64,000 bases of DNA from Candidatus Dojkabacteria bacterium. GTDB lineage: Bacteria; Patescibacteriota; Dojkabacteria; SC72. A program made the translations under genes and the position numbers. The notes under the pieces are model-generated. The model was not told the origin of the DNA, searched no databases, and saw only the letters and a list, made by a program, of their open reading frames with translations. The stretch lies in NCBI GenBank assembly GCA_016182915.1, contig JACPFP010000003.1:251685-315684 (forward strand), written 5' to 3'. Position 1 is the first letter of the stretch, and the number at the start of each line of letters is the position of its first letter. This document shows positions 9,284 to 30,672 of the stretch, piece after piece.

Positions 9284-9291
9284 AACTATTC

Positions 9292-9549: not shown

Positions 9550-9567
9550 TATAAATATACCTTTATG

Positions 9568-9596
9568 TTATATCCCCCATGGGGGGACTAGATATT
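9568..9596 (-). promoter_or_regulatory. putative CsoR operator: GC-tract palindrome CCCCCATGGGGG with AT-rich flanks, just upstream of csoR
   Basis: tatatCCCCCATGGGGGGactagatat starts 25 bp upstream of the csoR start. Known CsoR operators are G/C-tract pseudo-palindromes with AT flanks. Confidence 0.4.
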
Positions 9597-9629
9597 TATA
9601 ACAAAGTTTAAAAAGAATTGCAAATGGAA

Positions 9630-9878
9630 TTAGAGAAGCTCTATGAGAAACTCACTATCACCAGGTGCATAGCGGATAAGGGCGGTGAATGCATCCCCCA
9701 CTACGGAATCCCAGCCTAAAACTTCAAGAGTGTCTTGACCACTAGCAAACCTTGCCTGGTCACCCGAAATAATTTGAAGATCCGTAACTTCGCATCCTTT
9801 CTTGGACGCTAGTTCTGCTAGCGCATTTTCAACGACATCATTTTGAGGTTTTTCAAGATTTGGAAAGTAATCAGACAT
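9630..9878 (-). CDS. small hypothetical protein; possibly a remnant of a PfkB-family sugar-kinase C-terminus
   Basis: 82 aa. ...LEVLGWDSVVGDAFTALIRY resembles the PfkB C-terminal DTTGAGDAF signature region. It is too short to be an intact kinase. Confidence 0.3.
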   Translation of the reverse strand: MSDYFPNLEKPQNDVVENALAELASKKGCEVTDLQIISGDQARFASGQDTLEVLGWDSVVGDAFTALIRYAPGDSEFLIELL

Positions 9879-9939
9879 AAATACTTACATAAAAAATATG
9901 TGAGAAGGATTATAGGATACAGATGAGTGGATTGGCAAT

Positions 9940-10015
9940 GGTGGATGTGCTGGGATTCGAACCCAGAACCTAACGGTTAAGAGCCGCTTGCTCTACCAGT
10001 TGAGCTACACATCCA
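9940..10015 (-). tRNA. tRNA-Lys (anticodon CTT)
   Basis: Minus-strand 76-nt sequence GGATGTGTAGCTCAACTGGTAGAGCAAGCGGCTCTTAACCGTTAGGTTCTGGGTTCGAATCCCAGCACATCCACCA folds as a cloverleaf. Acceptor GGATGTG pairs with CACATCC. D-stem GCTC pairs with GAGC. Anticodon stem AGCGG pairs with CCGTT around the loop CTCTTAA. T-stem CTGGG pairs with CCCAG around TTCGAAT. The 3' CCA is encoded. Confidence 0.85.
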
Positions 10016-10064
10016 CGGCTAAATCTGTAGATAATATCAATATTATCTCATTTTTTCAATATCT

Positions 10065-11885
10065 TTACTTCATCCCTATATTCAATCTTATAACAGCTTT
10101 CATATAGAAACCGAAGGCAGGAATATAGAAAAGGAGGAGAATGAGGTTAAACAAGTTAGTACTTCTTTCAAAGGTATGTATTGCAACTACCAAACCCAGA
10201 AGTGTTACGAGAAGATTCAAGTACTTAATGAGGTGTATCGCTTTAAGTTTAGCCCTTTCTGACTTAACTTCTTTAGACATCATATCCATTGGATCGATAG
10301 GGATGGAGATATTCATTGGGTTACGCTTAGAAACAATTACCACATTACCTCTATATACCCTTTCATACTTCTCATCGACATCTTTTTTAACAATTATACT
10401 AGGAAATAGGTAACCTTTTCTTGAGACTATAATCCTATATCTACCTGTATCAAAATTACCTGTAAACCTTCCCTTGCCATCTGTAATATCTCTTCTAATT
10501 AAAGAATTATTATGATTATAGATAGAGACAAGAGCAAATCTAATTGGTTTTTTGCTCTCTCCGTCATATACAATTCCACACGGAGCTCCAGGTTTAATTA
10601 AGCCAATGAATTTCCAGATACGAGAGAAGAAGTAGGCTACAGCCATAGGCACAAGAGAAAGTCCTCCAAATAGAACGTAGATTGAAAGTATAACGGAGAG
10701 GAAAAGGAGAATAATACCTATTATAGTTAGATATATAGCCTTTATACTTACAAGATACCCAGTTATTAAGCTATCGAAATCATTAAGGAGAGAATTTGTA
10801 TTTTTAAACACATAGTTTATTACCTCAGTAAAGATGGGAATATCTATATCTGTATACTCTTTTAAGTGTATTTCAAATTCACAGTTTTGTGCCATATTCC
10901 CAGCCTGGTCTGAGGCCTCTACGCAGAAAACATACCTATCCCTGAAGTTCTGAAACAACCCTTTTTCAAGTTCGTCGAGAGATATAAGGGCAGTATAACT
11001 GCTACCTGTGGATTGTAGCGTTCCACACTCTTCCAGACCTCCAGTATTTTGACAATATAGACTTACAGACTGCAAAGTTAGATTATCAGTAACATTAAAC
11101 TTGAAAACTACTTGGTAACTCCCCCCTACTTTCTCAAGATCAGGAAGCTCAGTAGCAACAATAACTGGTGGTGTTGCATCTTGAACACTGAAAACTGAAT
11201 CAGACCACTCACTATACTCCCCTCCCGTATTGAGAGATCTAACACGATAGAAGTACATTTGAGAATTAGTGAGATTAGTAAAGGTGTATGATAATCCATC
11301 AAGTAGTGGCGAGGTTTGAACAACAGTACTGAAATCAGATTTATTTGAAACTTGCACCTGATACTCGTATACGGTATCAAGACCGTCTACTTCGAGCCAT
11401 TCTACAAGATTGCTTGATCCCTTTGTGTAGTATGGTTCAGGCTTGAATACTGGGGAAGGGATTGGAAATACGTATACATCAGCACTTACCTGGATAAGGA
11501 TATCTTCATCGTAGGTTGTATCCTTTGCTTTAACAGTGTAGACGCCAGGTGAGAAGTACCTAACCTTCCCGACTGCATATCCATCACTATCTGTCACAGG
11601 GGGTTGAACAAATTCAACCTCTTCAGAGGTATCTGAATATATGGAAACTGAATGTCCGGAGAGTGGGTTACTATTTCTATCCGTTATCCTAACCCTTACG
11701 TTCCTCCAAAGTCCAACCTCAGTATTCTCATTATCTATCTCTACCGTAGAATATGGATCTATATCTATAAATCCAGAAACCTGAGTCACAAACTCCTCAG
11801 CAGAGACATTATTCTTTAATGAAAAGAAACCAAGAAAAAGGCAAAGGAGAGTAAATATAATTTTATAGGCAGTTATCTTCTTCAC
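10065..11885 (-). CDS. hypothetical surface/membrane protein with signal peptide, fibronectin-III-like and carboxypeptidase-regulatory-like domains and C-terminal TM helices
   Basis: 606 aa. The N-terminal signal is FTLLCLFLGFFSLKNNVSA. The FN3-like segment reads YEYQVQVSNKSDF...YFYRVRSLNTGGEYSEWS. The CarboxypepD_reg-like segment reads RRDITDGKGRFTGNFDTGRYRIIVSRKGY. Several hydrophobic helices follow. Confidence 0.55.
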   Translation of the reverse strand: MKKITAYKIIFTLLCLFLGFFSLKNNVSAEEFVTQVSGFIDIDPYSTVEIDNENTEVGLWRNVRVRITDRNSNPLSGHSVSIYSDTSEEVEFVQPPVTDSDGYAVGKVRYFSPGVYTVKAKDTTYDEDILIQVSADVYVFPIPSPVFKPEPYYTKGSSNLVEWLEVDGLDTVYEYQVQVSNKSDFSTVVQTSPLLDGLSYTFTNLTNSQMYFYRVRSLNTGGEYSEWSDSVFSVQDATPPVIVATELPDLEKVGGSYQVVFKFNVTDNLTLQSVSLYCQNTGGLEECGTLQSTGSSYTALISLDELEKGLFQNFRDRYVFCVEASDQAGNMAQNCEFEIHLKEYTDIDIPIFTEVINYVFKNTNSLLNDFDSLITGYLVSIKAIYLTIIGIILLFLSVILSIYVLFGGLSLVPMAVAYFFSRIWKFIGLIKPGAPCGIVYDGESKKPIRFALVSIYNHNNSLIRRDITDGKGRFTGNFDTGRYRIIVSRKGYLFPSIIVKKDVDEKYERVYRGNVVIVSKRNPMNISIPIDPMDMMSKEVKSERAKLKAIHLIKYLNLLVTLLGLVVAIHTFERSTNLFNLILLLFYIPAFGFYMKAVIRLNIGMK

Positions 11886-13169: not shown

Positions 13170-14304
13170 CTTTCACATATGCATCAAATTTATATCTGAA
13201 AAGTTCAGAGGAAAACTGTTCCGCCTGCTTTCTACAATTATAGGGGTCGAACTGCTCAATATCAAATTCCTCAACAATCTTTGCAAGCTCTAACGCATTC
13301 CATTCATTGAAAAAAACACCTGTCTTTGGATTACTCTCAGATATAGTTTCCATAGTTCCCCCACTTCGAAGAGCGATAACTGGGACACCAGCAGCATTTC
13401 CTTCTACAGCTACAATTCCGAAATCTTCTTCTTTAACGGGAAAGATTAGTGCCTTGCATTTAGATAGGTGTTCGTATTTCTGTTCGTCTGGAAGAGGGCC
13501 TAGGAATTTTATAAGTCCCTTAGCATTAAGCTCTGTAACAAGGTTTTTCATATCTTCAATCTGAGTACCTGTACCAAGGATTTTTAATGGGACTCTTGCC
13601 TGTGCACACGCTGCAATTGCAAGATTAACCCCTTTATATCTCTCAACCCTCCCGACGTATAGAAACCAATTCTCTCTCTCATCGCTCTTTTTAAAAAAGG
13701 GTATACTTGCAACTTCCACAGGGGGATATATAACCTCTGTATCCAAGCCGTAGTACTCTTTAACCCTTTCCTTTACCGTATTTGATATTGAGATAACATA
13801 ATCGGCTTTCCTTGCAGCTTTTCTATCCCAATACTGCCATATCTTTTCAAGAACAGTATCCATGAAAAAGGCGTAGAAACGGTATGAGAATTTGGAGTCA
13901 TCTTTATGCGCCCTTCCCTCCTTCATCCAAAAGAATTTAGGGGGAGTTAAACAGTACAGGATGTGCTTAGTTTTTCGTCTCCATGGTCTTACATATTTAG
14001 CAAAACCTGATGAGACGGAAATTACAATATCAAAGCTAAGAAATGGAAATAGTCTGTATGCCCACGGATACAAGAGATATAACTCTTTTCTAAGGTACTT
14101 TTCAAAAGGTAGGTATTGGATAAAAGATTTAATAACTCTATTCTTTGGGAAGTTCTCTTTAATGAACTTAGGATCTGCAATTGAGGTATACAGCGTAGCA
14201 TCTGGATATAACTTTATAAGCTGGTGTACAACCTTTTCTGCACCACCTGATGTAAGGAGAGCATCTGATACAATTGCTACTCTAGGGTTTTCACGCTTTC
14301 TCAT
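13141..14304 (-). CDS. glycosyltransferase family 4 (GT-B fold)
   Basis: 387 aa. Its C-terminal half carries the GT4 EX7E-like region EDFGIVAVEGNAAGVPVIALRSGG. Confidence 0.8.
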   Translation of the reverse strand: MRKRENPRVAIVSDALLTSGGAEKVVHQLIKLYPDATLYTSIADPKFIKENFPKNRVIKSFIQYLPFEKYLRKELYLLYPWAYRLFPFLSFDIVISVSSGFAKYVRPWRRKTKHILYCLTPPKFFWMKEGRAHKDDSKFSYRFYAFFMDTVLEKIWQYWDRKAARKADYVISISNTVKERVKEYYGLDTEVIYPPVEVASIPFFKKSDERENWFLYVGRVERYKGVNLAIAACAQARVPLKILGTGTQIEDMKNLVTELNAKGLIKFLGPLPDEQKYEHLSKCKALIFPVKEEDFGIVAVEGNAAGVPVIALRSGGTMETISESNPKTGVFFNEWNALELAKIVEEFDIEQFDPYNCRKQAEQFSSELFRYKFDAYVKDVFLSKKSS

Positions 14305-15466
14305 AAATTCCTTTAATGTAATCTGTTATTTCTGATATAAAAATATCTTCTGTAAACTTTCGTGCTCTAATTATACACCATTCTGGTTTAATCTTGCTCC
14401 ATAGTTGTTTCTTTAGTAATTTTACAAGTTCATCGTATGTAGAGAAGAAGAAACCTGTCTTCCCTTCTACAACGGTTTCATTTAATCCTCCGACATTAAA
14501 TGCGAAAACAGGACTTCCTGAAGCCATCGCCTCAACGGGAATCAAACCAAAGTCTTCAATACCGCAAAAAAGGAGTACAGAGGAAAGTTTATGAATTGTA
14601 TGAGACTCCTGGTCATCAATATCATCAAGGAATATTACCTGTATACCCTTCTTATTGTTTTTTCTCACTATCTTTTTAAGATATGAGAGGTCAGGACCAC
14701 GACCAACAACAACAAGGTTCTGGCCTGCTTCAATGGATGCTCTTATTGCCCAATCCACATGTTTATAGTCAAAGAGCCTTGAGACAACAAGATTAAACTC
14801 ATCAGGAAGGTTATACTTTTCCTTAACCCTTTTCTGTTCCGCTTCCGAAATCTCTTTAAACCAGAATGCTTTTATTCCTGGGTATATAACCTTTGAGTTT
14901 CTTCTGTATCTTTTAAAAACTTTTCTTCGAATAAAGTTTGAAATGGATATAATATGATCCACTCTCTTTACTGCGGTCACATCCCAAATACGTATATAGC
15001 TCGATATAATTTTAGATCCAAGATAGTATATATTTCTAAGTATAGAGCCGCGTACATTAATATCATTGTCCCACTGATGACGTGGGGGGGTACATATGAT
15101 TGAGATATGTTTCTGGCTAGGGTATGTAATTACACCTTTTGAGGCTCCTGCGGAAACGGAAATAACTAGATCAAATCCTCTTAGATCAAACTGTTCGAAA
15201 AGGAAAGGGAGTAATACTGTAATCCTTCTTCCAATGCCCCATTTAAGAATACTACCAAAAAACTTAGGTACATGAACTTTGTTTTGCAAATTAGGATAGT
15301 TCGCTTTACTAAACGTAGAGGTATAAATCTCCGCTTGGGGAAAGATTAGAAGCAGGGATTCAATAACTCTATCAGATCCTCCAATGCTGTTAATAAATTC
15401 AGTTACAATAGCAACTTTTAGCTCTTTCATTGCAAGAAGTTTAACAAGACAGCAGATATAGCACAA
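14291..15466 (-). CDS. glycosyltransferase family 4 (GT-B fold); true start is probably MKELK at 15430
   Basis: 391 aa. The segment EDFGLIPVEAMASGSPVFAFNVGG is present. It begins 14 to 50 nt downstream of the stop of the giant surface-protein gene and is co-oriented with it. Confidence 0.8.
   Translation of the reverse strand: MCYICCLVKLLAMKELKVAIVTEFINSIGGSDRVIESLLLIFPQAEIYTSTFSKANYPNLQNKVHVPKFFGSILKWGIGRRITVLLPFLFEQFDLRGFDLVISVSAGASKGVITYPSQKHISIICTPPRHQWDNDINVRGSILRNIYYLGSKIISSYIRIWDVTAVKRVDHIISISNFIRRKVFKRYRRNSKVIYPGIKAFWFKEISEAEQKRVKEKYNLPDEFNLVVSRLFDYKHVDWAIRASIEAGQNLVVVGRGPDLSYLKKIVRKNNKKGIQVIFLDDIDDQESHTIHKLSSVLLFCGIEDFGLIPVEAMASGSPVFAFNVGGLNETVVEGKTGFFFSTYDELVKLLKKQLWSKIKPEWCIIRARKFTEDIFISEITDYIKGIYEKA
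15433..15461 (-). repeat. 3'-flank repeat caagaagtttaacaagacaGCagatatagCaca, a paralogous copy of 19865..19896
   Basis: The two copies are nearly identical 29 to 32-nt segments. Each lies immediately after the stop codon of one of the two giant surface-protein genes. Confidence 0.6.
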
Positions 15467-15480
15467 GAGAGAGGAAAAAC

Positions 15481-16263
15481 TTAGAGTTCAACTACATTAG
15501 CTCTCTTTCTGAAAAGGAAGAATGAGACCCCAGCAACTAATAGAATAGCAACAAGAACAAGAACTACGGTATTAATATTTAGTCCTTGGTCTGTATCCTC
15601 TTTAATCCTAATGACTATCCCCTTCTCCTGACTATCCTCGGCTATGACAATCTCCTGTTTTACAACCTTAGCACCGAGTACAAACTCTATGGTATACGTA
15701 CCAGGATCTAAATTCTCTACATAGATATATCCATTGCTATCTGTCGTATATACAACATTATCTATTTTAACCTGGGAATTTCTCAATGGAGTTCCGCCTG
15801 GGGATAGAATCTGCAATCTAGTTATATCAGGAGCAGTAGTATCAGGCTCAGAATCTTCGCCTTCTTCACCATCCTCCTCAACAGGAGGGGTTTCTCCATC
15901 ATCATCCGTATCTCCACCTGAGCCATCTTGATCATCTATCTCATCACCAAAAAGGTCATCAGGGAAAAATTCTTCACCTATAATCAAAGTTAAGGTACGT
16001 TCATCAGATTTATTTTCAACAGTGTCGGTAGAGTAGTAGGTTATTGTGTTTTCACCTAAGGTAAGTTCTGGAGTATCTAGCGTAATAGTGAAGTTACCAT
16101 TTGAATCTGCGTAGACAATATAACTTGTGCTTCCTTCTTTAAATACAACTTTTGAACCTGCTTCCGCCCTACCACTTATTTTAGGTGTTGTAGATGTGAA
16201 ATAGTATAGAAGATTATCAAGGTCTGGAATCGTAGTAATCAATCCTATACTTGTTATAACAAC
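15481..16263 (-). repeat. conserved C-terminal module, copy A (paralogous to 19913..20719)
   Basis: The ~260-aa tail VVITSIGLITTIPDLDNLLYYFTST...TTDSNGYIYVENLDPGTYT...FRKRANVVEL is shared with gene 2 at ~80% amino-acid identity with clear nucleotide similarity. Confidence 0.7.
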
Positions 16264-19200
16264 ATGATCTGGTGCAGAATTATCAAGAGTTATACTGTCT
16301 GAAAACGTACCGGATATATTACCCGCCCAATCCTTAAATTTAACATAGACAGTTTTCAAACCATCACCAGAAGGGAGTGTTATATTCTTTGATGTACTAT
16401 AATCCTCCCACTGAGCACCCACAAAACTCGAGCTTGTAGAAACCATCATCTCAGATACACCTGGGTTTGCATCAGTCGCATTGATTGTTAGAGATGCACT
16501 TCTTGAGGAGGTATTGGTTGCTCCTCCATTTATAACAACAGAGCCGACAGGAGCAGTTGTATCAAAACTAATCCTTACAAAGTTGGAGGCATTAGTTCCA
16601 TTTATTGTAGAGAAGCTTCCTGCAATATAAAGATCTGAGCCTGAACGCAACATATCCTGAATTGTTCCTAGGATAGAGATATCTCCATCCACATCTTCAA
16701 CATCAGTAGTTTGATCTATTCTAGAGAAAGTTTGGATACCACCAAGTAGGATATCAGAGCCATCTGGCAGTAGATCAAATACAGAGGAGACTGTTGTGGG
16801 GTTAAAATCGGCATCAGGATAGTTTGTAGACAAAGGCACCTTCGAAGCGAATGAGTCACTCTCTCCGTTTACCATTGAAGTATAGGCACCTCCTACGTAT
16901 AGGTCAGAACTACTTTTAGCAATTGATCTTACACTGGACTGGGCACTAGGATTGAAGCTCAAATCTGCTGTACCTGACGTGGTTGAAAGTTTTGCAATTC
17001 TGGAACGAGATTGGCCACCAATAGTGGTGAATTCGCCACCAACATACAAAGAAGATCCTGAAATGGCAAGAGTGTTTACCGTATTATTAGAGTTTGGACT
17101 AAATGTTCCATCAACTGCTCCTGTTGAAGCATTTAACTTAGCAAGCCTACCACTCGCAACACCATTAATCACACCAAAGGCACCGCCAACATATATATCA
17201 GAGCCAGAAACCTCCAAAGTACGGACAGAGCTTCCACCATCACTAGATCCAGAGATATTAAACGTAGTATCTAACGTTCCGCCTATTGTATCTATTTTCG
17301 CCAGACGCTGCCTTCCAGTCCCTCCAACTGTACTAAAGTATCCTCCAATATATAAGTCCGAACCGACCAATTGCATAGCGTATACCCAATGACTGACAGA
17401 AATAGTGAATGTAGCATCGCCAACTCCTGTATTTGCATTTAATCTTGCAAGATACGGTTTCGCCAAACCTCCAATTGATGTGAAATCCCCTCCCACATAT
17501 AAGTCAGAGCCTGAAATTGCAAATGACCTTACATAATTATTGGACGTTGCATTAAATCCTGTATCAGCCACTCCAGTTGTTCCATCTAGTTTTGCAATAT
17601 AGTTCAATGCTTCCCCTCCAATATTTGTAAATGCCCCACCTACATAGAGGGAAGAACCAGAAAGAACCATCGAAAGCACAGTACCATTGGAATCAGGATT
17701 AAAGTTACTATCTACAGACTTATCGGAGTTGATGTGAGCAATTCTGTTTCTGGCAACCCCACCTACCGAGGTAAAACTTCCTCCGATATACCATCCCCCG
17801 TTTCCATCGCTTATAACCTTCTCAATAGTTCCATTTGGCCTTGGCCAACCTGATTCAGGCATCAAAGAATCTATCTCATAATCAGCACCATATGCTACAT
17901 TTCTCCCGAGTTGCGAAAAGTGACCGCCTAAATATAAAGTGTCGTCAGTTACGGCAATAGATTCAACCCAATGGTTTGTAATCAGATCAAATCCAGAGTC
18001 ACCAGCTCCGGTCGTTGTATTAACTTTTGCTATAAACCTTTGGCCAGTAAGTCCTCCAATTGACTGAAAGTTTCCTCCGGCATACAAGCTGGAACCAACC
18101 AAATCAATCACGTAGACATCACCACTGGCATCAGGATTAAAGGTTGCATCGAGTACTCCTGTTGCATGGTTAACCTTTGCTAAACGATTTCGGCTCTGTC
18201 CATCGATAGAGGTGAAACTACCTCCAACATAGAGACTAGTTCCATCAGTATCAAAATCAAACACTTGAAAATTAGGGTTCAAAGAAAAGTTTGCGTCAGC
18301 CGCACCTGTAGTGATATTAAGTTTAGCAAGGTTAGTCAAAGTTTCTCCACCTATTGATGTAAAAGACCCTCCTACATATAAGTCACTCCCTATAAGCTCT
18401 AACGCATTTACAACGCCACTAGAATTGAGATTAGGATTAAAAGTTGTATCAAGAACCCCAGTATCAATATCAATTTTTGCAAGGCTTTTTCTTGTCGTTA
18501 CCCCAAGAGAGGTGAAAGCCCCTCCAATAAATAAGTTAGAGCCGTAAGTATCCACGGCTATAACATCATTATTTACCCTTGCGTCGAGGCTAGAATCAAC
18601 CAACCCCGTTAAAGGGTTAACTTTAATAAACGAGCCTACAAATTCGGTGTCAGAGTAATCGAAATATCCACCCAAATAGATATTATTTCCACTAATAAAA
18701 ACTTTTAATACCACATCGTCAAGAAGTGCGTTGAAATTGGGGTCTGCAACTCCAGTAGTAGGGTCAAGTTTAGCAACCGAAACAAGGTCTAAACCTCCTA
18801 TATAAGAAAACCATCCACCCACATATAAAGATCCATCAAGTAAGGCAAATGATTCAACGACAGAATCTGGGCCAGGGTTAAAAGTCAAATCAACTACCCC
18901 TGTGGTAGCATCTAATTTAGCTGCATAATTAAGCGCTTCACCACCAATTGTATCGAACGAACCGCCTACATATAAATCTGATCCTGACAGCAAAATAGTA
19001 ACAACTTCATCGTTTGGCTCAGGTGTAAAACTCATATCTACAACTCCAGTAGTAGAATTCAGTTTTGCCAAGGCAGTAACATTTTCCCCTCCTATGCTGA
19101 AAAAACCTCCTCCAACATATAGTGTGGAACCACTAAGAACCATGGTTCTGATAGCATCATCAGGGTTGGGTGCAAAGCTAGTGTCTACGACTCCCGTAGT

Positions 19201-19749
19201 AGAATTCAATTTAGCAAGCCCAGTAATTGACTCTCCACCAATCGTTGCAAAATATCCGCCAACATAAAGATTGCTTCCAGATAAGATTAATGATGTGACT
19301 GTACTATCAGCACCTGGATTAAAATTCGGGTCAACCGTACCATCTGATAATATATGCGCAAGACTCACTCGGGCTACCTCTCCCACTTCTGTAAAGTCTC
19401 CACCAATATACCAACCCCCGCTACCATCGCTAACTGCAGAGTAGACTACAGAGTTTGGAGTTGGCCAGTCAGGGCTTGGTTCCCCTGTAGAACTGTTTAT
19501 TTGGACACCATAAGGAATATGCGGCCCAACAGAATTAAAACTTCCACCAATATAAATATAATCATCATCTTTTACGACTGCATTAGTCTGTCCATCGACA
19601 ACCCACATATTTTCAACAACTGTTCCGGCTGAAACAGGTTGCGAGAAAATAAAAAAAAGAAAGAAAAAGGACACAACCTTTACTAAGGGATTTAATCCAT
19701 GCATAATCCTCATCGTAATCTTATCATGGATTGTACAGGGCTGAGACAC
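15481..19749 (-). CDS. giant surface protein with delta-60 (beta-propeller) repeats; C-terminal Big-like domain, acidic linker and TM anchor
   Basis: 1422 aa with an N-terminal signal or TM segment (FFFLFFIFSQPVSA). More than 15 copies of a ~55-aa repeat (S)GS.LYVGG.F..IGG......LAKL...TG..D..F.P match the delta-60 repeat pattern. The C-terminal 260 aa are ~80% identical to the C-terminus of ORF 19913..24481. Confidence 0.8.
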   Translation of the reverse strand: MSQPCTIHDKITMRIMHGLNPLVKVVSFFFLFFIFSQPVSAGTVVENMWVVDGQTNAVVKDDDYIYIGGSFNSVGPHIPYGVQINSSTGEPSPDWPTPNSVVYSAVSDGSGGWYIGGDFTEVGEVARVSLAHILSDGTVDPNFNPGADSTVTSLILSGSNLYVGGYFATIGGESITGLAKLNSTTGVVDTSFAPNPDDAIRTMVLSGSTLYVGGGFFSIGGENVTALAKLNSTTGVVDMSFTPEPNDEVVTILLSGSDLYVGGSFDTIGGEALNYAAKLDATTGVVDLTFNPGPDSVVESFALLDGSLYVGGWFSYIGGLDLVSVAKLDPTTGVADPNFNALLDDVVLKVFISGNNIYLGGYFDYSDTEFVGSFIKVNPLTGLVDSSLDARVNNDVIAVDTYGSNLFIGGAFTSLGVTTRKSLAKIDIDTGVLDTTFNPNLNSSGVVNALELIGSDLYVGGSFTSIGGETLTNLAKLNITTGAADANFSLNPNFQVFDFDTDGTSLYVGGSFTSIDGQSRNRLAKVNHATGVLDATFNPDASGDVYVIDLVGSSLYAGGNFQSIGGLTGQRFIAKVNTTTGAGDSGFDLITNHWVESIAVTDDTLYLGGHFSQLGRNVAYGADYEIDSLMPESGWPRPNGTIEKVISDGNGGWYIGGSFTSVGGVARNRIAHINSDKSVDSNFNPDSNGTVLSMVLSGSSLYVGGAFTNIGGEALNYIAKLDGTTGVADTGFNATSNNYVRSFAISGSDLYVGGDFTSIGGLAKPYLARLNANTGVGDATFTISVSHWVYAMQLVGSDLYIGGYFSTVGGTGRQRLAKIDTIGGTLDTTFNISGSSDGGSSVRTLEVSGSDIYVGGAFGVINGVASGRLAKLNASTGAVDGTFSPNSNNTVNTLAISGSSLYVGGEFTTIGGQSRSRIAKLSTTSGTADLSFNPSAQSSVRSIAKSSSDLYVGGAYTSMVNGESDSFASKVPLSTNYPDADFNPTTVSSVFDLLPDGSDILLGGIQTFSRIDQTTDVEDVDGDISILGTIQDMLRSGSDLYIAGSFSTINGTNASNFVRISFDTTAPVGSVVINGGATNTSSRSASLTINATDANPGVSEMMVSTSSSFVGAQWEDYSTSKNITLPSGDGLKTVYVKFKDWAGNISGTFSDSITLDNSAPDHVVITSIGLITTIPDLDNLLYYFTSTTPKISGRAEAGSKVVFKEGSTSYIVYADSNGNFTITLDTPELTLGENTITYYSTDTVENKSDERTLTLIIGEEFFPDDLFGDEIDDQDGSGGDTDDDGETPPVEEDGEEGEDSEPDTTAPDITRLQILSPGGTPLRNSQVKIDNVVYTTDSNGYIYVENLDPGTYTIEFVLGAKVVKQEIVIAEDSQEKGIVIRIKEDTDQGLNINTVVLVLVAILLVAGVSFFLFRKRANVVEL
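16720..19600 (-). repeat. intragenic tandem array of delta-60-type ~165-nt coding repeats
   Basis: The motif LY(V/I)GG.F..IGG...LAKL recurs in the translated sequence throughout this span. Confidence 0.65.
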
Positions 19750-19820
19750 TATCGTAATTTATGAACTTAAAAAACTATTACATCAATAATAGATTACCTC
19801 ACTTGATATATCAATGCAAT

Positions 19821-19896
19821 ATTGGAGATTATTCTAAAGTTCTGGTAAACCGTCTGACCACATACAAGAAGTTTAACAAGACAATAGATATAGTAC
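19821..19896 (-). repeat. duplication junction: 5'-flank repeat (19821..19858, copy of 24561..24598) abutting 3'-flank repeat (19865..19896, copy of 15433..15461)
   Basis: attggagattattctaaagttctggtaaaccgtctgacc at 19821..19858 matches attggaattattctaaagttctggtaaaccatctggcc at 24561..24598. caagaagtttaacaagacaatagatatagtac matches the flank after the gene-1 stop. Confidence 0.7.
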
Positions 19897-19912
19897 AGGG
19901 GAAAAGTGATGA

Positions 19913-20719
19913 TTAGACTTCAGTTAAATTGGATCTCCTTCTGAAAAGGAAGAATGAGACAACTGCAACTAAGAGAATAGCAACTAGGGCAAGAACTATT
20001 GTATTAATATTTAGTCCTTTATCCGCATCTTCTTTAATCTTTATAACTATACCCTTTTCTTGACTATCATCACCAATGACAATATCCTGTTTTACAACTT
20101 TGGCACCAAGTACAAACTCAAGAGTATACGTCCCAGGATCTAAATTCTCCACATAGATATATCCGTTGCTATCTGTAGTATATACAACATTATTTATTTT
20201 AACTTGAGAGTTTTTCAATGGTTTCCCATTGGGAGTTATAATTTGCAATCTAGTTAAGTCCACTGTATTACCGTTATCGCCATTATCACTTACTTCTTTA
20301 TCTTCACCGGTAGTAGTATCTTCGTCCTCCGAAGGATTCTCTTTCCCTCCTTCGTCATCACTTGTATCTCCACCAGTACCGTCTTGATTCTCTACCTCAT
20401 CTCCAAAAAAGTTCTCTGGAAAGAACTCTTCTCCAATTATTAATGTTAATGTTCGTTCATCAGATTTATTATCTGAACTGTCCATAGAGTAGTATGTAAG
20501 GATGTTTTCACCTAATGCCAATGCGGGGGAATCAAGCGTGATTACGAAGTCGCCATTTGAATCTGCATAAACTACATAACTAGAACTACCTTCATTGAAT
20601 ACTATCTTGGACCCCGCCTCCGCTTTACCAGTTATCCTTGGGTTGGTAGAGGTAAAATAGTATAGAAGAGTATCTTGGACTGGTATATCGGTAATTATAC
20701 CTATACTTGTGATAACAAC
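19913..20719 (-). repeat. conserved C-terminal module, copy B
   Basis: Paralogous to 15481..16263. Confidence 0.7.
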
Positions 20720-23700
20720 TTTTACTGGTTTAGTTGTATCAAGATTACTTTGTGGGGATAGAATTTTAAAGGCCGATAGCCCGGAATTCGCAGTAACGTA
20801 TTCGGATATACCCCCCTTAATATCTTCCGCTTTTACACGCCAGTAGTACGTTCCTCCAGATAAAATTTGCCCTTGAGTTCCCTGTGTATACGACCCTGAC
20901 CCAGCAGGTTGCCCCACTTGGAAGCTTTTACTTCCTGCTGTACCAAATTCTGAAACGTACTCTATAATTGGGGAACTAAAGTCAGCATCCGTATCTATCT
21001 GGACAGTATATTTTATAGTGTCACCAAAGTCTGAGTCAGCAATATCAAATGTTAATGTTGGGGTAGAAGTAGTAATAAAATCTCCGCTTACATAGTCAAT
21101 CGGGCCGAGTGTCGATACCGAAGGGAGATTACATGTTTCTGCAACCATCCCTTTTATATCGTTAGTTCCAAGTACGTATCCTGTAACAACATTATTTCCG
21201 TCAATTGGAAGTCGATGAAGAACAGTGAAGTATGAAACAAGGAATTTTGATTCAGGAATAGAATACATCATGGAGGTAGCCTCTCCGTAGTCTAGACCAT
21301 ATATGTAACTAATCGGAATATTTGTTACGCTAAGTGTGTTTGGGTTAATGGATTCAAAGACTGGTGATGAGTTTCCTGACAGATGGTATAACAAACCGTC
21401 TACAGGATTGTAGCCAATGGTTTCACCGCTGTCTCCTCCTCCAAGCGTAAGCTTAGATGTAGTCGAGCCATTCAATGTACTAATTGTATATAATGTAGAG
21501 GGTTGGTTGGATTCACCCTTTCCTGTTATTCCCCATAGGACTCCATCTCTTGTAAAGGCAATTCCGGCAAACTTCTTCCCGGTATTACCAACGGATGTAG
21601 CAATGCCTGTTGTAGGGTTAATTTTAACTAACTGTCTTCCCGATTGTCCCTGAAGTTGAATTACCGAATACATCTCACACGTTAAAGGGTTGTAAGCAAG
21701 GCCATTACTACCATTAACGGTATAACCAGCTAAGGTTATTGACTGAGAGCTCAATTCCTCTGCCGTAATGGCATTCAAAAGACTAAGCTGGTCAGACCAA
21801 GGGTTAACAGTATAAACATTGTAATCAAAGCCAAGATTAAGAGTTGTATCAAAGATCCAATTAATGTTATTCCCAGAGTCTATACTCCCCGTACCGCTAA
21901 GATTAATAGTTGTAGCACTATCGTTTCTGCCTCCTTTAATATCAAGATATGAAAGAGCCCTTGATCCACTTGAATTTATTCTCCAATAACAAGCATTACA
22001 AGTACCACGTAACTTAAGAAGGTTACCGGGTGTCCCAGTGAGTTCCAAGGTCCCCGAAATATCAGGAACTGTTCCTGTATTTGAAAAGGTAAGAGTATCT
22101 TCACTTGTAGTAGCCTTCTTAAAATTAAAGAAGTCTAAAGTACCCGAGCTGTGATAAAGGGATAGCGCCTGATTGGAACCGTTTAGGACTATATTTCCGC
22201 TATTATGATTAAAAGTAGCAGGAGAAGAAAGAAATATGGTTACATTTCCAGCAAGATTTAAATCCCCACCCGGAGCTGTAAAAGTTACATAAAGGGTGAA
22301 ATTTCCCGTAACAGTCATATCTCCGGAAGCCGGCGCAGTGAAACTACTACTGGTCCCAATAAGGTTGAATAGTCCCGAAACTGTCATATTTCCACTCGCT
22401 GGTGCAGTAAATGAGTTATTTGTGTTAGACATCGTAAATGAGCCTCCTACAGACATGTCCCCAGCGCTCGGAGCAATGAAGGTACAGTTTGCGTTAGACA
22501 TTGTAAATGTGGAAGCTAAAGTAACAAAACTATAACTACTTAAATCAACTGTTGTACCTGTACCTATTGACATTGAACTTCCAGTGAACGAAGAGAACCC
22601 AGAGAGGGAAAAGCTTGAGTTGAGAGTAAGAGTTCCACTGGATATAGTTAGAGTTCCCGTCCCCGTAAGTGTTCCATACAAATTTATACCGTTAGGAATA
22701 GTTGGGTTATTACCAAGGGATAAGTTACAGAAACTATTTATAGTCTTTACTCCGGTTTGTCCTGCGAAGCTGGCATTATTAAAAGTATAACCTCCACATG
22801 TTAGAGAGGCTACACCTCCGCTAAAAACAACAGCAGTGCTATTATTATTAAATATGGTCGAAGGATCAAGGGTTACATTTCCTGATAAATATAGATTCCC
22901 CCCTGGAGAATTAAAAGTTGTACCCGAACTAGAGAGAGTAAAGGAACTCGTAACTGTCATATCGCCTACAACTGGTCCGACAAACGTACTCGTTGAGTTA
23001 GTCATTGAAAAGCTTCCAACCGTTATGCTTCCACTATTTGGTGCGGTAAAGGAGGTGTTTGGGGCCGACATAGAAAAATTTGCAATAGTCATACTCCCAC
23101 TACTTGGACCTATAAAAGAACTACCTGAACTAGACATAGAAAAGGTTGAACTCAAGGAAACAGAGCTAAAACTACTCCAGTCAATGCTTGATACTAAGCC
23201 AATTGATATAGTATTCCCGGCAAAAGAAGTGAATCCTGTAACGTCGGAACTATCAGTAAGCGTTAAAGTACTTGTCGACATCGTAAGAGTCCCTGTTCCA
23301 GAGAGGGTACCATTTAAGGTTATACTGTTAGGAATTGTTGGATTATTACCGAGAGGGAAATTACATGAGCTGTTTATAGTCTTTGTACCAGTTTGTCCTG
23401 CAAAACTAACGATATTAAATGTACTCAGATTCCCACACGAGAGAGTTGCGGTGGAGCCACTAAAAACGACTGTACCATTATTGTGGTTAAATGTCCCAGA
23501 TACTGTAAAAGCTTTTGGAACAGTCAGATTTCCACCTGGAGCTGTAAATGTTGCTGTGCTACTAGATATTAGAAAAGTTCCGCCGGTATACAGGTCTCCA
23601 GTACCTGGCCCAGAAAACGAGCTATTACTACCACCCATAGTAAAAGAGTTAAATATTGAACTCAATGTTACAGAGTTCAAACTACTCCAATCTACAGTTG

Positions 23701-24481
23701 CTCCTGCACCAATATCCAGCTGATATCCTGAAAAATCCGTAAATCCCGAGATAGAACCGCCAGTCATGGACAACGTCCCAGCTGTCATTGTAAGGGTTCC
23801 CGTACCACTAAGAGTTCCTGCTAAAGAAATACTATTGGGAATGATCGGATTGTTCCCGAGAGGGAAATTACATGTACTTTGTATCGTTTTTGTGCCGGTT
23901 TGTCCCGTAAAGCTTACATTGTTAAAAACTTGATTCCCACATGAGAGTGTTGCTGAGGCTCCACTAAAAATGACAGTACCATTGTTATGATTAAAAGTTC
24001 CCCCTGAAATTGTAACAGCAGAACTAATTGTTGTTGTTCCGCTGGTAGCTGTAAATGTTCCTGAACTCAAAGTGAATGAAGTAATCGATAAAGTTTGATT
24101 ATTCGCATCAAAAGTGCCGGAATTTTGTGTTAAGCCATTAGATGTAAACGAAAATGTTTTATTTAAAGTTACAACTCCTGTATATCCTGAGTTAATCTGT
24201 AACCACGACACTGATGATGCAGAGAAATCTATATCGATAACCGAGTCTTTACTTGAGGTAGCATCAAGGATCACTGTATCAATAGATACAGGGCATATGT
24301 CTGAGCTCCAGTTCACACAGTCACTCCAGTTGTTTGTGGTTCCTCCTCCATCCCACGTTCTCGTCGACGCATAAACATTTGTTTCATAAAATCTAATAGG
24401 GATAAGCACGAAAAATAGGGTTGCAATGAGCATTACAAATAATTGGAGTTTACCAAATTCAGTCTTTCTTTTCACAAACAT
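19913..24481 (-). CDS. giant surface protein: N-terminal TM/signal, threefold ~200-aa Thr/Ser/Gly-rich beta-helix-like repeats, beta-propeller-like and FN3-like regions, and the shared C-terminal module with TM anchor
   Basis: 1522 aa. The repeats begin TFNHNNGTV(I/V)FSG..ATLSCG...FAGQTGTKTI.S.CNFPLGNNPTIPN...GTLSGTGTLT. An FN3-like region reads GTYYWRVKAEDIKGG. The C-terminal 268 aa are paralogous to the gene-1 tail. Confidence 0.8.
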   Translation of the reverse strand: MFVKRKTEFGKLQLFVMLIATLFFVLIPIRFYETNVYASTRTWDGGGTTNNWSDCVNWSSDICPVSIDTVILDATSSKDSVIDIDFSASSVSWLQINSGYTGVVTLNKTFSFTSNGLTQNSGTFDANNQTLSITSFTLSSGTFTATSGTTTISSAVTISGGTFNHNNGTVIFSGASATLSCGNQVFNNVSFTGQTGTKTIQSTCNFPLGNNPIIPNSISLAGTLSGTGTLTMTAGTLSMTGGSISGFTDFSGYQLDIGAGATVDWSSLNSVTLSSIFNSFTMGGSNSSFSGPGTGDLYTGGTFLISSSTATFTAPGGNLTVPKAFTVSGTFNHNNGTVVFSGSTATLSCGNLSTFNIVSFAGQTGTKTINSSCNFPLGNNPTIPNSITLNGTLSGTGTLTMSTSTLTLTDSSDVTGFTSFAGNTISIGLVSSIDWSSFSSVSLSSTFSMSSSGSSFIGPSSGSMTIANFSMSAPNTSFTAPNSGSITVGSFSMTNSTSTFVGPVVGDMTVTSSFTLSSSGTTFNSPGGNLYLSGNVTLDPSTIFNNNSTAVVFSGGVASLTCGGYTFNNASFAGQTGVKTINSFCNLSLGNNPTIPNGINLYGTLTGTGTLTISSGTLTLNSSFSLSGFSSFTGSSMSIGTGTTVDLSSYSFVTLASTFTMSNANCTFIAPSAGDMSVGGSFTMSNTNNSFTAPASGNMTVSGLFNLIGTSSSFTAPASGDMTVTGNFTLYVTFTAPGGDLNLAGNVTIFLSSPATFNHNSGNIVLNGSNQALSLYHSSGTLDFFNFKKATTSEDTLTFSNTGTVPDISGTLELTGTPGNLLKLRGTCNACYWRINSSGSRALSYLDIKGGRNDSATTINLSGTGSIDSGNNINWIFDTTLNLGFDYNVYTVNPWSDQLSLLNAITAEELSSQSITLAGYTVNGSNGLAYNPLTCEMYSVIQLQGQSGRQLVKINPTTGIATSVGNTGKKFAGIAFTRDGVLWGITGKGESNQPSTLYTISTLNGSTTSKLTLGGGDSGETIGYNPVDGLLYHLSGNSSPVFESINPNTLSVTNIPISYIYGLDYGEATSMMYSIPESKFLVSYFTVLHRLPIDGNNVVTGYVLGTNDIKGMVAETCNLPSVSTLGPIDYVSGDFITTSTPTLTFDIADSDFGDTIKYTVQIDTDADFSSPIIEYVSEFGTAGSKSFQVGQPAGSGSYTQGTQGQILSGGTYYWRVKAEDIKGGISEYVTANSGLSAFKILSPQSNLDTTKPVKVVITSIGIITDIPVQDTLLYYFTSTNPRITGKAEAGSKIVFNEGSSSYVVYADSNGDFVITLDSPALALGENILTYYSMDSSDNKSDERTLTLIIGEEFFPENFFGDEVENQDGTGGDTSDDEGGKENPSEDEDTTTGEDKEVSDNGDNGNTVDLTRLQIITPNGKPLKNSQVKINNVVYTTDSNGYIYVENLDPGTYTLEFVLGAKVVKQDIVIGDDSQEKGIVIKIKEDADKGLNINTIVLALVAILLVAVVSFFLFRRRSNLTEV
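22216..23998 (-). repeat. intragenic tandem coding repeats (3 units of ~500 to 640 nt) within gene 2
   Basis: The repeat unit starts at aa 162, 330, 543 and 756 (TFNHNNG / IFNNNST / TFNHNSG). Confidence 0.6.
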
Positions 24482-24560
24482 TCGCCAATTAATTGATATA
24501 TGCGTTTAAGAATAACAGTCCGAGAATTTGGAGTCAAACCTCACTCGCTAGGGTACAAGT

Positions 24561-24598
24561 ATTGGAATTATTCTAAAGTTCTGGTAAACCATCTGGCC
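24561..24598 (-). repeat. 5'-flank repeat, copy B; it also encodes the last residues (DGLPEL*) of the zinc-ribbon protein gene
   Basis: Matches 19821..19858 with one indel and two substitutions. Confidence 0.65.
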
Positions 24599-25082
24599 CT
24601 AGATCCTCAAGATCTTTTGTTACATCTTCCTCCTCTTCATCTAGTGCGCTTAAGGCCTTCTGAAAATCTACATCTGGTTCTAAGCTACTTGGAGCACCCT
24701 CATCAGGAAAAATATCTGTAAGTCCTGGAGTATCTTCAAATGTATCTTCGGGAATCCCTCTTATAGGTATATCTAAACCGTCAAGATCATCATCTCCAAT
24801 TCCACTATCTTCATCGTCATCATCTTTCTTCTTTGGAGTAACTGAGTCTGAGCTCCATACGCCTTCTCTTTTAAGATGCGCAAGGTAGCTTTCTGCATCT
24901 TCACCGAATTTTTCAATAACCTGTACAACCTTCATTGTCGAATTACACTCTTTACAGAGTTTTAATTCTTCCAATTCTTCACCGCAGTTTGAGCAACCGA
25001 ATACAACTATATGTATACTTTTTACGGGTTGTACAACCTTTTTATCGGTTGTCTTTGTATTTGAGGCAGTCATTTGAAACAC
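24573..25082 (-). CDS. hypothetical zinc-ribbon protein with a long acidic C-terminal tail
   Basis: 169 aa. A CxxC...CxxC pair (FGCSNCGEE...CKECNS) is followed by a D/E-rich disordered tail. Confidence 0.5.
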   Translation of the reverse strand: MFQMTASNTKTTDKKVVQPVKSIHIVVFGCSNCGEELEELKLCKECNSTMKVVQVIEKFGEDAESYLAHLKREGVWSSDSVTPKKKDDDDEDSGIGDDDLDGLDIPIRGIPEDTFEDTPGLTDIFPDEGAPSSLEPDVDFQKALSALDEEEEDVTKDLEDLGPDGLPEL

Positions 25083-28794: not shown

Positions 28795-30666
28795 ATGAAA
28801 AACCTCCTTGTACCGATTTTCATATCACTTTTCTTTCTACATTCCTCGCTAAATGTATTTGCGGGAGAGAAAGAGATTAAGATACCAATTAGAGAGGATG
28901 CATATGTAGAAAGTATATTCTTTGATGAATCCTTTGGAATGCTTAAGCAACTACTACTTGGCTTTAACAACAGTTCAAGAGAAGGTATAACAAGAATATA
29001 CGTCAAATATGATACAAGAGAACTAGGGAATGTTTTTGTTGATAACATAAAGAGTGCCAGTTTGAAATTGTATCAGTATAAAGTGAATAGTACTTTCGAT
29101 TATCCAATTAGAGTTGCATACCACTTTGAGCCGTGGAGTGAAAATACCATAATGATGATGAACACATTGATTAACCCAACACGACAGGAAACAACTTCCG
29201 TTATCCCAGCAACCGTAGGTTGGACTTCAGTAAATATAACCGAGAAGTTTTTGGAGCATATGCTTAATCCAGAAAGTAACCGTGGAGTGGCCCTTCTCAT
29301 GAAGAATGAGGAAGAGAAAGGAGGGGTATTCTGGTCAAAGGATTGCGTTACTCTTCCCGCCTCATGTAACCCTGAATATATCCCCTACGTTAGTGTTATT
29401 GTAAAAACTGTAGATGAAGTTCCAGCGGAAGAGAATGAAGAAAAGGATGAAGAGAAAGATGAAGACATTGAAAGCAAAACGGATTCTGATATTGAAAAGC
29501 TCACTGAATCAATTGATAGTTCCACAGATAGAATTGTTGAAGCAATATCTGATATAGAAGAGACTCCTGAAACAACCCCAAGTATAGTTAAGGAAGAAAG
29601 CAATATTACAGAAGATAATGTAGTAGATACAACAAGAACGACATCAGGAGTACTGGGAGTTAGGAGTCATCAAGGGTGTAAATATATTTGGAACGCGACT
29701 ACCGATGTAGTTAGAAAATTCGTATGCACATTGGATACTCCAGTTATTAAATCTACCAAAATTGAGTACAGGAAGAACACCGGTACCTACATTACAACAA
29801 ATATAACTCTCCCCAAAAGTTTAGAGGTTACACTAGAGAAAAGAGAATGTTCTAAGGCTTCCATAACAAATCCCATTACACTCTTTAAATGTGTAGAGAA
29901 ACAAATTTCAACAAGGAACATAACAGATTCCTCACCTTATATCGACATATATTTAAATATAGATGGGAAATGGTATCCAACCTTTAAAAAGGAAACTTCA
30001 ACCGGCTATACAACCTCTCTCAACCTATCGTTTAAGCCTAAAAGCGAGCTGATACAGGCAAAATACCTACTAAGCAGTTCTACAAAACTTAAAGAGAGGG
30101 TATGGTTAGATATATTCGAAATGTCCCCGCACTCTGTACAGAGTAGTTTTAAAATAATTGAGCAAGCCTCTCCAACATATGTATTTCCACTAAAGACCCT
30201 TTCCAATGTAACTCAGTGGCATGGGAAAACGGCATACAGCAACCATACAGGAATAGATTTTGAAGCAGGAAGAGTTCCCGTGTTAGCAACCTCAGATGGA
30301 ACAGTAGATTACATTGGCTGGGATAATTCCTCCGGAAAGTGCCTCTCTGGAGGGAACTATATTAAACTAAAACATAGTGATGGGAAATACTCCACCTATC
30401 TTCATCTCAACAGCTTCACAAAAGGGCTAAAGAAAGGAAGTCCCGTTAAAAAGGGAACAGTCATTGGCATATCCGGAAACTCTGGAATGTATAACTGTGA
30501 ACCCCTTACAAATCATCTTCATTTTGAGGTTAGAAAATCCCCTCCTCTCTCATCTCACATAAATCCTGTACCTCTAATTAACATTGACTGGGCAAAGGTA
30601 AAGACGGCTAGAGCAAACATATATCCTGTTAGGCTCACGGGGGATAATCCTCATCCAAAGTATTAA
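28795..30666 (+). CDS. secreted M23/LytM-family metallopeptidase with a large N-terminal domain of unknown function
   Basis: 623 aa. A signal peptide is present. The C-terminal M23 domain reads HTGIDFEAGRVPVLATSDGTV...YSTYLHLNS...GISGNSG...HLHFEV, with the H.H zinc ligands present. Confidence 0.8.
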   Translation: MKNLLVPIFISLFFLHSSLNVFAGEKEIKIPIREDAYVESIFFDESFGMLKQLLLGFNNSSREGITRIYVKYDTRELGNVFVDNIKSASLKLYQYKVNSTFDYPIRVAYHFEPWSENTIMMMNTLINPTRQETTSVIPATVGWTSVNITEKFLEHMLNPESNRGVALLMKNEEEKGGVFWSKDCVTLPASCNPEYIPYVSVIVKTVDEVPAEENEEKDEEKDEDIESKTDSDIEKLTESIDSSTDRIVEAISDIEETPETTPSIVKEESNITEDNVVDTTRTTSGVLGVRSHQGCKYIWNATTDVVRKFVCTLDTPVIKSTKIEYRKNTGTYITTNITLPKSLEVTLEKRECSKASITNPITLFKCVEKQISTRNITDSSPYIDIYLNIDGKWYPTFKKETSTGYTTSLNLSFKPKSELIQAKYLLSSSTKLKERVWLDIFEMSPHSVQSSFKIIEQASPTYVFPLKTLSNVTQWHGKTAYSNHTGIDFEAGRVPVLATSDGTVDYIGWDNSSGKCLSGGNYIKLKHSDGKYSTYLHLNSFTKGLKKGSPVKKGTVIGISGNSGMYNCEPLTNHLHFEVRKSPPLSSHINPVPLINIDWAKVKTARANIYPVRLTGDNPHPKY

Positions 30667-30672
30667 ATTTAA

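Follow-up and report, generated by a model that had tools for sequence, protein, structure and literature searches.

Two giant surface-protein genes stand next to each other in a 64-kb stretch of DNA (here called the window) from a member of Candidatus Dojkabacteria (candidate division WS6, candidate phyla radiation (CPR)/Patescibacteria). As far as can be read from the sequence, this tandem arrangement was shown to result from two copies of the locus that recombined unequally, in an illegitimate event, once. The two long open reading frames (ORFs), termed gene A (15481..19749, 1422 amino acids (aa)) and gene B (19913..24481, 1522 aa), are co-oriented on the minus strand and share a C-terminal stalk and anchor module. 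The favoured reading, at about even odds, is that both copies of the locus already carried long-diverged alleles, an A type and a B type, before they were joined.

Gene A comprises 1422 aa when counted from a GTG codon. A separate gene call on a contig of the Logan collection begins at the ATG at 19704, which is the probable start and leads to a protein of 1407 aa. Gene B corresponds to MBI2357059.1 (HYV12_03365) and is annotated as hypothetical. The slot which holds the pair is bounded upstream by the gene of an acidic Zn-ribbon protein (24573..25073, minus strand; MBI2357060.1, HYV12_03370, likewise annotated as hypothetical). The downstream boundary is a GT4 glycosyltransferase (GT) gene (14291..15430, minus strand), the first of a GT-GT-Bac_transf-RecO block. 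Both giant genes are intact and possess a start, a signal peptide and an upstream region of their own.

The evidence for the recombination event is found in short flanking repeats, which an earlier note on this DNA had described and which are both real by blastn. The master copy of the 5' flank island (24556..24598, minus strand) consists of the real 3' end of the Zn-ribbon gene (GPDGLPEL*) and the first 17 nt upstream of gene B. Its junction copy between the two giant genes (19817..19859, minus strand) comprises the last 8 Zn-ribbon codons, the stop codon and 17 nt of spacer, with a −10-like TAGAAT at 19831-19836. The two copies are 92.5% identical over 40 nt (19820..19859 versus 24560..24598, E 5e-10). 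The master copy of the 3' flank island (15428..15461, minus strand) contains the extended −10-like TGTTAAACT (15438-15446), 7 nt and the GT start codon ATG (15428-15430). The junction copy of this GT promoter region (19861..19893, minus strand) shows TG-T-TAAACT at 19870-19878 and again the GT start ATG (19861-19863), and 27 of 29 positions are identical between 15433..15461 and 19865..19893. No further copy of either island or of the module region was detected by blastn in the window.

On the coding strand the region from gene B to gene A reads ...CTATATCTATTGTCTTGTTAAACTTCTTG T ATG T GGTCAGACGGTTTACCAGAACTTTAG AATAATCTCCAATATTG..., where the first part is the GT upstream region with its ATG and the second part is the Zn-ribbon tail with its spacer. 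At the junction the distal end of the unit, which includes the GT ATG, meets a proximal end that starts inside the Zn-ribbon tail, and the breakpoints lie about 27 nt before the Zn-ribbon stop codon and right after the GT ATG. The tandem-duplication topology proposed in the earlier note (19817..19893) is therefore retained, but the island copies do not abut as had been stated: 5 nt (T-ATG-T) lie between them and keep the GT start codon. The DGLPEL* fragment reported for the junction is present and is read as ATG TGG TCA GAC GGT TTA CCA GAA CTT TAG. The GT start codon stands in frame with the Zn-ribbon tail, and the resulting chimeric mini-ORF MWSDGLPEL* (19834..19863, minus strand) is, by its composition, the mark of the breakpoint of a duplication-type event. 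Two independent insertions followed by homogenisation of the module were rejected as the sole explanation, because they cannot duplicate the Zn-ribbon tail and the GT ATG.

A joint of this kind might also be produced by an assembler which stitched the strain variants Zn-A-GT and Zn-B-GT together in series. The source is a metagenome-assembled genome (MAG), the flanks are nearly identical, as those of strain variants would be, and the sole independent contigs come from the same run. However, the junction sequence is found in neither master copy, as the ATG is fused to TGGTCAGAC and a 1-nt deletion, a 1-nt insertion and several substitutions are present, and assemblers join shared k-mers and do not invent new ones. 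Furthermore, two Logan contigs (run SRR12113422), which were built by a different assembler, cover all three gene boundaries: one leads from SecA over the Zn-ribbon gene, gene B and the junction to the start of gene A with 99.99% identity over 16 kb, the other from the end of gene A into the GT gene with 100%. The modules are only 75% identical, so that neither a collapse nor a mis-join is expected. An artefact, which the earlier note had considered, thus appears hardly credible; the second assembler follows the same path, with substitutions and indels at the junction that are private with respect to both master copies, and nothing obvious points to a fault.

The shared module extends over aa 1155-1422 of gene A (15484..16287, minus strand) and aa 1247-1522 of gene B (19916..20743, minus strand), as defined for A by BLASTP, Pfam, AlphaFold2 (AF2) and Foldseek. 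It is the only significant segment in a BLASTP comparison of the two proteins (70% over 276 columns, E 4e-119), and at the DNA level 15433..16288 and 19865..20744 are 74.7% identical over 881 nt (E 6e-167), both copies lying on the same strand 4.43-4.46 kb apart. A common C-terminal module had been predicted correctly, but the proposed identity of about 80% was too high: 70-72% of the amino acids are identical, and about 85% is reached only in the last ~110 aa. The module starts with a Big_6 Ig-like domain, followed by an EEFFP motif, an acidic disordered linker, a second beta-sandwich resembling CarboxypepD_reg, a transmembrane (TM) helix and a basic tail. Big_6 (PF17936) was matched with 32.8 bits in A and 28.4 bits in B, above the gathering cut-off of 27.6. 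The CarboxypepD_reg scores (PF13620; 23.1 and 19.8 bits) are below the cut-off of 32.3, and 9 of 30 family members match this domain at E <= 1e-4. In the AF2 model of the module, built with a 16-sequence alignment (pLDDT 78), an all-beta sandwich is formed by residues 10-110 (pLDDT > 90), the acidic linker at 114-150 is disordered, the second sandwich of 7 strands covers 155-227 (pLDDT 77-88) and the TM helix 238-266. The linker is the least conserved part, and the identity is carried by the folded domains; the similarity is hence not the low-complexity noise that had been named as a possible objection. A simple-repeat or low-complexity artefact was also rejected because no arrays were found by TRF and the identity sits in the folded domains.

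In Foldseek the module is closest to tandem Ig domains from adhesins, namely Bap, SiiE and MpIBP (E 4.5e-7 to 1e-4). Like Bap of Staphylococcus, SiiE of Salmonella, the ice-binding RTX adhesin MpIBP and the pilin BcpA, the A and B proteins have tandem Ig-like beta-sandwiches and a head which would be held off the cell on an Ig-like stalk. However, the identity to these proteins amounts to only 12-19%, A and B would be anchored by one C-terminal TM helix followed by a basic tail, and the host belongs to the CPR. In addition, A and B differ from them by the absence of an LPXTG sorting signal, a type I secretion system (T1SS) retention module and pilin polymerisation, and their stalk consists of two domains split by the acidic disordered linker. 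No LPXTG motif precedes the C-terminal hydrophobic segment of A or B, neither as a match to Gram_pos_anchor nor by eye in ...EDTDQGLNINTVVLVLVAILLVAGVSFFLFRKRANVVEL. By the features tested, A and B are not LPXTG proteins or integron cassettes, and probably not autotransporters. To judge from their architecture and the models, both would be type-I membrane-anchored proteins with large extracellular adhesin-like heads and a short basic tail in the cytoplasm.

Upstream of the module (~1150-1250 aa) the two proteins have no significant similarity in BLASTP, in agreement with the proposal that their N-termini are unrelated. Gene A encodes, in this order, a signal peptide, about 19 DUF5122 ("delta-60") blades, an Ig-like domain and the stalk/anchor module. 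The blades (16750..19617, minus strand) recur with a period of 49 aa (147 nt), as seen from Pfam PF17164, the 147-nt repeat families D1/D3 and the motif spacing of 49 aa. The assignment to a delta-60 beta-propeller made in the earlier note was borne out by the Pfam scan, with 183 bits for DUF5122 over 9 stretches in gene A; the same scan gave no DUF5122 match in gene B. Gene B lacks the Ig-like domain of gene A (GDGxKTVYVKFKD type; 16288..16581, minus strand), which many family members carry ahead of the module. A segment of this type was detected by phmmer in 34 of 180 retrieved proteins, and it has a weak OmpL47-type match.

Gene B is composed of an N-terminal signal or TM segment, threonine/serine (T/S)-rich all-beta repeats, a propeller-like domain, an Ig domain resembling fn3 or SusE and the stalk/anchor module. 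Its head contains at least 4 Thr/Ser/Gly/Asn-rich repeats of ~169-211 aa (21842..24364, minus strand; repeat families D5, D13, D14, D16 and D17, with spacings of 504-636 nt), and the composition is 18% S and 16% T. Pfam gave no match for aa 1-880, and the head has no sequence match in NCBIfam or PDB. A single-sequence AF2 model of the head is all-beta at low confidence (pLDDT 63), and its best Foldseek matches are the autotransporter beta-helices of Hbp, Ag43 and EtpA, which are non-significant (E 0.013-0.06, TM-score <= 0.23); the head is probably solenoid or beta-helix-like. The middle part (20747..21781, minus strand) comprises the propeller-like DUF6923/DUF4394 region (aa ~900-1070) and the SusE/fn3-like Ig domain (aa 1138-1245) by Pfam, with 28.2 bits for DUF6923 (cut-off 27), E 1e-4 for DUF4394 and 25.5 bits for SusE (cut-off 25.2).

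Adjacent co-oriented duplicated paralogues with a conserved anchor and divergent or swapped N-termini are known from the streptococcal emm/mrp/enn (M-like) genes, the staphylococcal sdrC-D-E genes and the Listeria internalin clusters. The N-termini in these families are usually recognisably homologous or of the same repeat type. In contrast to these clusters, the heads of A and B are entirely unrelated folds (a propeller versus a probable T/S-rich solenoid), and the flank copies look far more recent than the module.

The module and the islands differ strongly in their divergence. For 273 aligned codons of the module a synonymous divergence (dS) of 1.03 and a nonsynonymous divergence (dN) of 0.19 were determined (dN/dS 0.18), which on these values is an old divergence under purifying selection. 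The proportion of synonymous differences (pS) between the A and B modules is 0.56, below the saturated 0.69-0.83 measured against all relatives, and the A/B split would therefore fall inside this lineage. The island copies are identical at 64 of 69 positions (~93%), a value with a probability of 1e-17 if 44% identity is expected and of 1e-4 at the 75% of the module. The identical positions include sites which vary among relatives, namely the synonymous GGT TTA CCA GAA CTT and 16 nt upstream of the −10. Beside the islands the homology ends sharply, as the 20 nt after each stop codon are poorly alignable. Homology of the 5' untranslated regions (UTRs) beyond the 5' island was ruled out, these being no more similar than shuffles (428/500). 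With flanks identical at so many positions, a module at a pS of 0.56, and 5' UTRs and heads that cannot be aligned, these sequences are not what a simple history of duplication followed by divergence would leave behind. The junction is probably younger than the A/B split.

A merger of diverged alleles would explain flanks of ~93% identity next to a module that is saturating at synonymous sites, together with unalignable 5' UTRs and heads. The A-type allele would have been a gene with the DUF5122 propeller head and the B-type allele a gene with the T/S-rich repeat head. The two may have been haplotypes of one population; DNA uptake followed by homology-facilitated illegitimate recombination is one way in which they could have been joined. 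The junction would then be much younger than the split of the genes, with islands at strain-level divergence and interiors at ancient divergence, and the heads could differ as a consequence of head exchange at the boundary between head and Big_6 domain, which takes place throughout the protein family. Homology-facilitated illegitimate recombination and unequal crossing-over have been described as sources of tandem duplications for Acinetobacter and for the transformation of Streptococcus pneumoniae. In such events a novel joint with little or no microhomology (here ATG|TGG) beside long homologous DNA (here the SecA-Zn-ribbon side) would give the observed order of donor allele, joint and resident allele.

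The islands also carry predicted promoter elements. All relatives show (C)TGTTAAACTTC at a distance of 4-5 nt before the GT ATG, which suggests an extended −10 element, TGnTAAACT, 6-7 nt before the GT start and would imply a leaderless GT mRNA. Motifs of the Shine-Dalgarno type are rare in the window (4 of 43 ORFs), and leaderless mRNAs are suggested to be common in this genome. TATAAT-like or extended −10 hexamers were seen 6-8 nt before the ATG of several genes, at 2095 (plus strand), 34147 (plus), 47440 (minus) and 15430 (minus), for instance TGTTATAAT-N7-ATG at 2095. By its sequence pattern the 3' island would be the core promoter and start codon of the GT operon, with the junction copy pointing into gene A, and the giant genes may use the TAGAAT of the 5' island, to which the Zn-ribbon stop codon contributes, as a −10 element. 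As a by-product of the event, the copied extended −10 of the GT gene and the TAGAAT upstream of gene A may help to transcribe gene A, a predicted leaderless promoter having been carried in front of a second gene.

These elements bear on a classical tandem duplication in situ, in which a single giant gene with its flanks was duplicated about dS 1 ago and the 5' UTR, signal peptide and head of one copy were later replaced by recombination at the Big_6 boundary. The islands would have been kept alike as promoters (extended −10, TAGAAT) or by gene conversion of short tracts. This history, the main rival, seems possible, if somewhat doubtful. It predicts the same junction topology as a merger of alleles, needs no unobserved second haplotype, and agrees with modules that are nearest relatives and whose split is younger than all sampled speciation events. 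Moreover, the element TGTTAAACTTC..ATG of the 3' island is conserved across species, the genome appears to use −10-proximal leaderless starts, and an increase in codon identity towards the 3' end of the module is compatible with conversion. However, both copies agree in 24 contiguous nt (GGTTTACCAGAACTTTAGAATAAT), whereas every relative shows 3-6 differences in these codons. Likewise, 14 of the 16 nt upstream of the −10 are identical, in a stretch where species differ from one another. A promoter does not keep a whole spacer constant, RecA-mediated conversion is poorly served by islands of 30-43 nt with unalignable DNA on both sides, and 64 identities among 69 positions have P <= 1e-4 under the module's own divergence.

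Several observations nevertheless weigh against a merger of two diverged alleles or against parts of it. No haplotype with only A or only B was found and look-ups of the exact proteins return one sample, so that the premise of two alleles is unobserved; two metagenome scans, one with A/B peptide patterns and one with an exact 24-mer of the 5' island, also found nothing. The Logan contigs share the sequencing run family with the MAG and are thus not fully independent. The islands overlap plausible promoter elements (TGTTAAACT-N6/7-ATG, which is conserved across species, and TAGAAT), and their conservation could be partly functional. Towards its 3' end the module shows a weak rise in codon identity (83% over the last 32 codons, Fisher p ~0.04), a gradient of the kind expected from patchy gene conversion. 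Finally, an adhesin or host-attachment function is deduced from domain types and fold matches only, the model of the gene B head being of low confidence.

The state of the slot in other genomes indicates in which lineage the genes arrived. Zn-ribbon orthologues, 58-79% identical, were traced to contigs of six other Dojkabacteria lineages, where the order of genes for the M23 peptidase, SecA, Zn-ribbon protein, GT, GT, Bac_transf, RecO and a 600-aa CarboxypepD_reg protein is kept. In 6 of 6 the Zn-ribbon stop codon is followed by a spacer of 29-64 nt and then by the GT ATG, without a giant gene in the slot. Because the slot is empty in all six lineages, the 9.1-kb pair of B and A is, on this comparison of sequences, a derived lineage-specific insertion. 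An intermediate with a single giant gene in the slot was not found among them. The contig of the closest relative, L016 (Logan SRR22216451_875740; Zn-ribbon protein with 88-90% aa identity), ends 83 nt past the stop codon (1100..1182), and these 83 nt match neither the upstream region of gene B nor the GT spacer; L016 may represent a third state of the slot.

The Zn-ribbon protein itself (24573..25073 in the window; L010-L025 in relatives) is encoded downstream of SecA in all Dojkabacteria relatives and has an invariant (D/E)GLPEL end. Variable inserts stand between SecA and the Zn-ribbon gene in relatives: L010 carries an HD-domain protein there, L020 both EamA and Exo_endo_phos. From the conserved neighbourhood a functional link between the Zn-ribbon protein and SecA is conceivable.

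Dojkabacteria and other members of the CPR are believed to lead a life attached to host cells, and their large surface proteins are prime candidates for host recognition. The locus offers a clean and datable example of how a surface repertoire grows: a slot filled in one lineage, and two genes brought into tandem by a single illegitimate joint. The processes concerned (gene duplication, merging of alleles, domain shuffling) are well known, and the value of the example is descriptive rather than conceptual.

The arrangement also recalls dedicated systems of antigenic variation, an analogy drawn in the earlier note. On such a reading the islands would be recombination sites for the insertion, exchange or shuffling of alternative surface-protein cassettes. 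Integron cassettes, the shufflon and the pilS/vls loci likewise have co-oriented genes with short conserved repeats between them in a fixed chromosomal slot. Here each gene is bracketed by short, sharply bounded and highly conserved direct repeats, and unrelated heads stand on a conserved anchor. The slot holds no giant gene in relatives, and in the closest one the Zn-ribbon stop is followed by a sequence of yet another kind. Nevertheless, such a system is very unlikely at this locus, and the analogy was not supported by closer analysis. In contrast to those systems, there is no integrase or invertase, no imperfect palindromes of the attC type and no promoterless cassettes, and the repeats are the ends of neighbouring host genes (the Zn-ribbon coding tail, the GT promoter and ATG) instead of element-borne sites. 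Pfam scans of all ORFs >= 100 aa detected no integrase, invertase, transposase, DDE or recombinase domain in the 64 kb. The islands are direct copies in which no inverted repeats occur, and their folding is not more stable than that of shuffled sequences (z +1.2, +0.95, −0.67). Both genes are complete and independently expressible, silent copies without a promoter are missing, and only two copies exist, with no further island in the window. The locus is most probably a case of ordinary modular gene evolution and not a dedicated antigen-variation system.

Two related candidates were also rejected. A mobile element was ruled out, as transposase and integrase domains are absent and the lone tRNA lies far from the slot, not next to the insertion. 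A structured RNA, a terminator or an attC-like element in the flanks was also ruled out; the flanks fold like shuffles, have no Rfam match and stay at background in a terminator scan. Quite improbable, finally, is the idea that the spacer between the Zn-ribbon and GT genes serves as a dedicated "loading slot" for adhesin genes. The islands would then act as sites of recombination and expression, and head-stalk cassettes would be acquired, stacked or exchanged between strains without a locally encoded recombinase. If true, this would be a CPR-specific way to diversify host-attachment proteins.

The history of the heads can be placed in a wider family. An exhaustive HMMER search of 1.84 billion representative proteins with a profile of the A/B module returned 452 proteins at E <= 1e-3. 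In dozens of these, with lengths of 270-1850 aa, the extreme C-terminus aligns with the entire module. Exhaustive HMMER was needed, as word-index searches with module A or with a linker-free A/B profile were useless and missed even gene B. Within this set the A and B modules are mutual closest relatives, and the next full-length match has E 3e-44 at ~35-38% identity. The genomic matches belong to MAGs of Saccharibacteria and Dojkabacteria, and a scan with a 6-sequence alignment gave only distant CPR relatives (33-40%). The other CPR proteins with the module (L002-L008, P0003...P0142) have the same C-terminal architecture with varying heads. They also share the motifs V-ITxIGLIxNIPDxDxLxYYFTSTxPxIKG ... 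LIIGxENFP ... YxTDSxG, followed by the TM helix and the basic tail. However, they are only 29-38% identical to A and B and mostly encoded by single genes, and none was found with a flank-duplication junction.

Among 30 module-bearing proteins the N-terminal domains are DUF5122 (6), GLUG (5), NHL (4), SBBP (3), LamG and others. Conversely, a head of the B type is present in P0058, P0083 and P0102, which are 34-38% identical over the head; with its fn3-like and Big_6 domains it is there joined, at 34-46% identity, to a different C-terminus with multiple TM helices. These three proteins are 2.0-2.2 kaa long and end in several TM helices and two CarboxypepD_reg-like domains; the N-terminus of P0083 and P0102 resembles a response-regulator receiver, and this may be either an unusual architecture or the product of two genes called as one. 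Because the module occurs on varied heads and the B-type head on another anchor, recombination between head and stalk at the Big_6 boundary is, on this survey of sequences, a general feature of the family. The shuffling of domains on a conserved anchor suggested for A and B thus extends to the whole family, with DUF5122, NHL, GLUG, SBBP and LamG heads on the same module.

An older case of neighbours which share the module is found in L004 (Dojkabacteria PFQB01000048.1). Its two module genes (1466..4609 and 7475..10747) lie on the same strand with one 821-aa gene between them; they carry the module at 38% identity and their heads differ, one being an NHL propeller and the other of another type. 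The statement that this is not a described family holds in part: no family name was found for the combination, yet its domains are of known types (Big_6, CarboxypepD_reg-like) and the module occurs widely across the CPR. Literature searches for the module or for this type of locus in Dojkabacteria and CPR gave nothing relevant. With the widespread, unnamed C-terminal stalk/anchor module (Big_6, acidic linker, beta-sandwich, TM helix) as a query, candidate adhesins could be catalogued in Saccharibacteria and Dojkabacteria.

The remainder of the window contains further genes of the cell envelope. The slot lies in an envelope-gene-rich region (28795..47440) with an M23 peptidase, GT4 and GT2 glycosyltransferases, an epimerase, Polysacc_synt flippase-like genes, and VKOR together with a DsbA-like thioredoxin; several ORFs of 590-820 aa (38169..42405, 45383..47440) have no Pfam match. 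The sole RNA gene detected in the window, a tRNA-Lys (CTT) at 9939..10014 (minus strand), does not adjoin the inserted pair. Two more proteins of the surface type, both without a match to the A/B module profile, are encoded on the minus strand. One (10065..11885; 606 aa) combines Big_1, fn3 and CarboxypepD_reg domains with a C-terminal TM helix and is conserved after RecO in all relatives; the other (50993..54256; 1087 aa) has a Big_13 domain. In addition, a sortase gene (57862..58542, minus strand) adjoins the gene of a 1641-aa protein (58505..63430, minus strand) that has prealbumin-like domains of the SpaA/SpaA_2 kind and carries an LPXTG-type signal. By these sequence features the latter looks pilin-like or sortase-anchored and would represent a second, unrelated anchoring system in the window.

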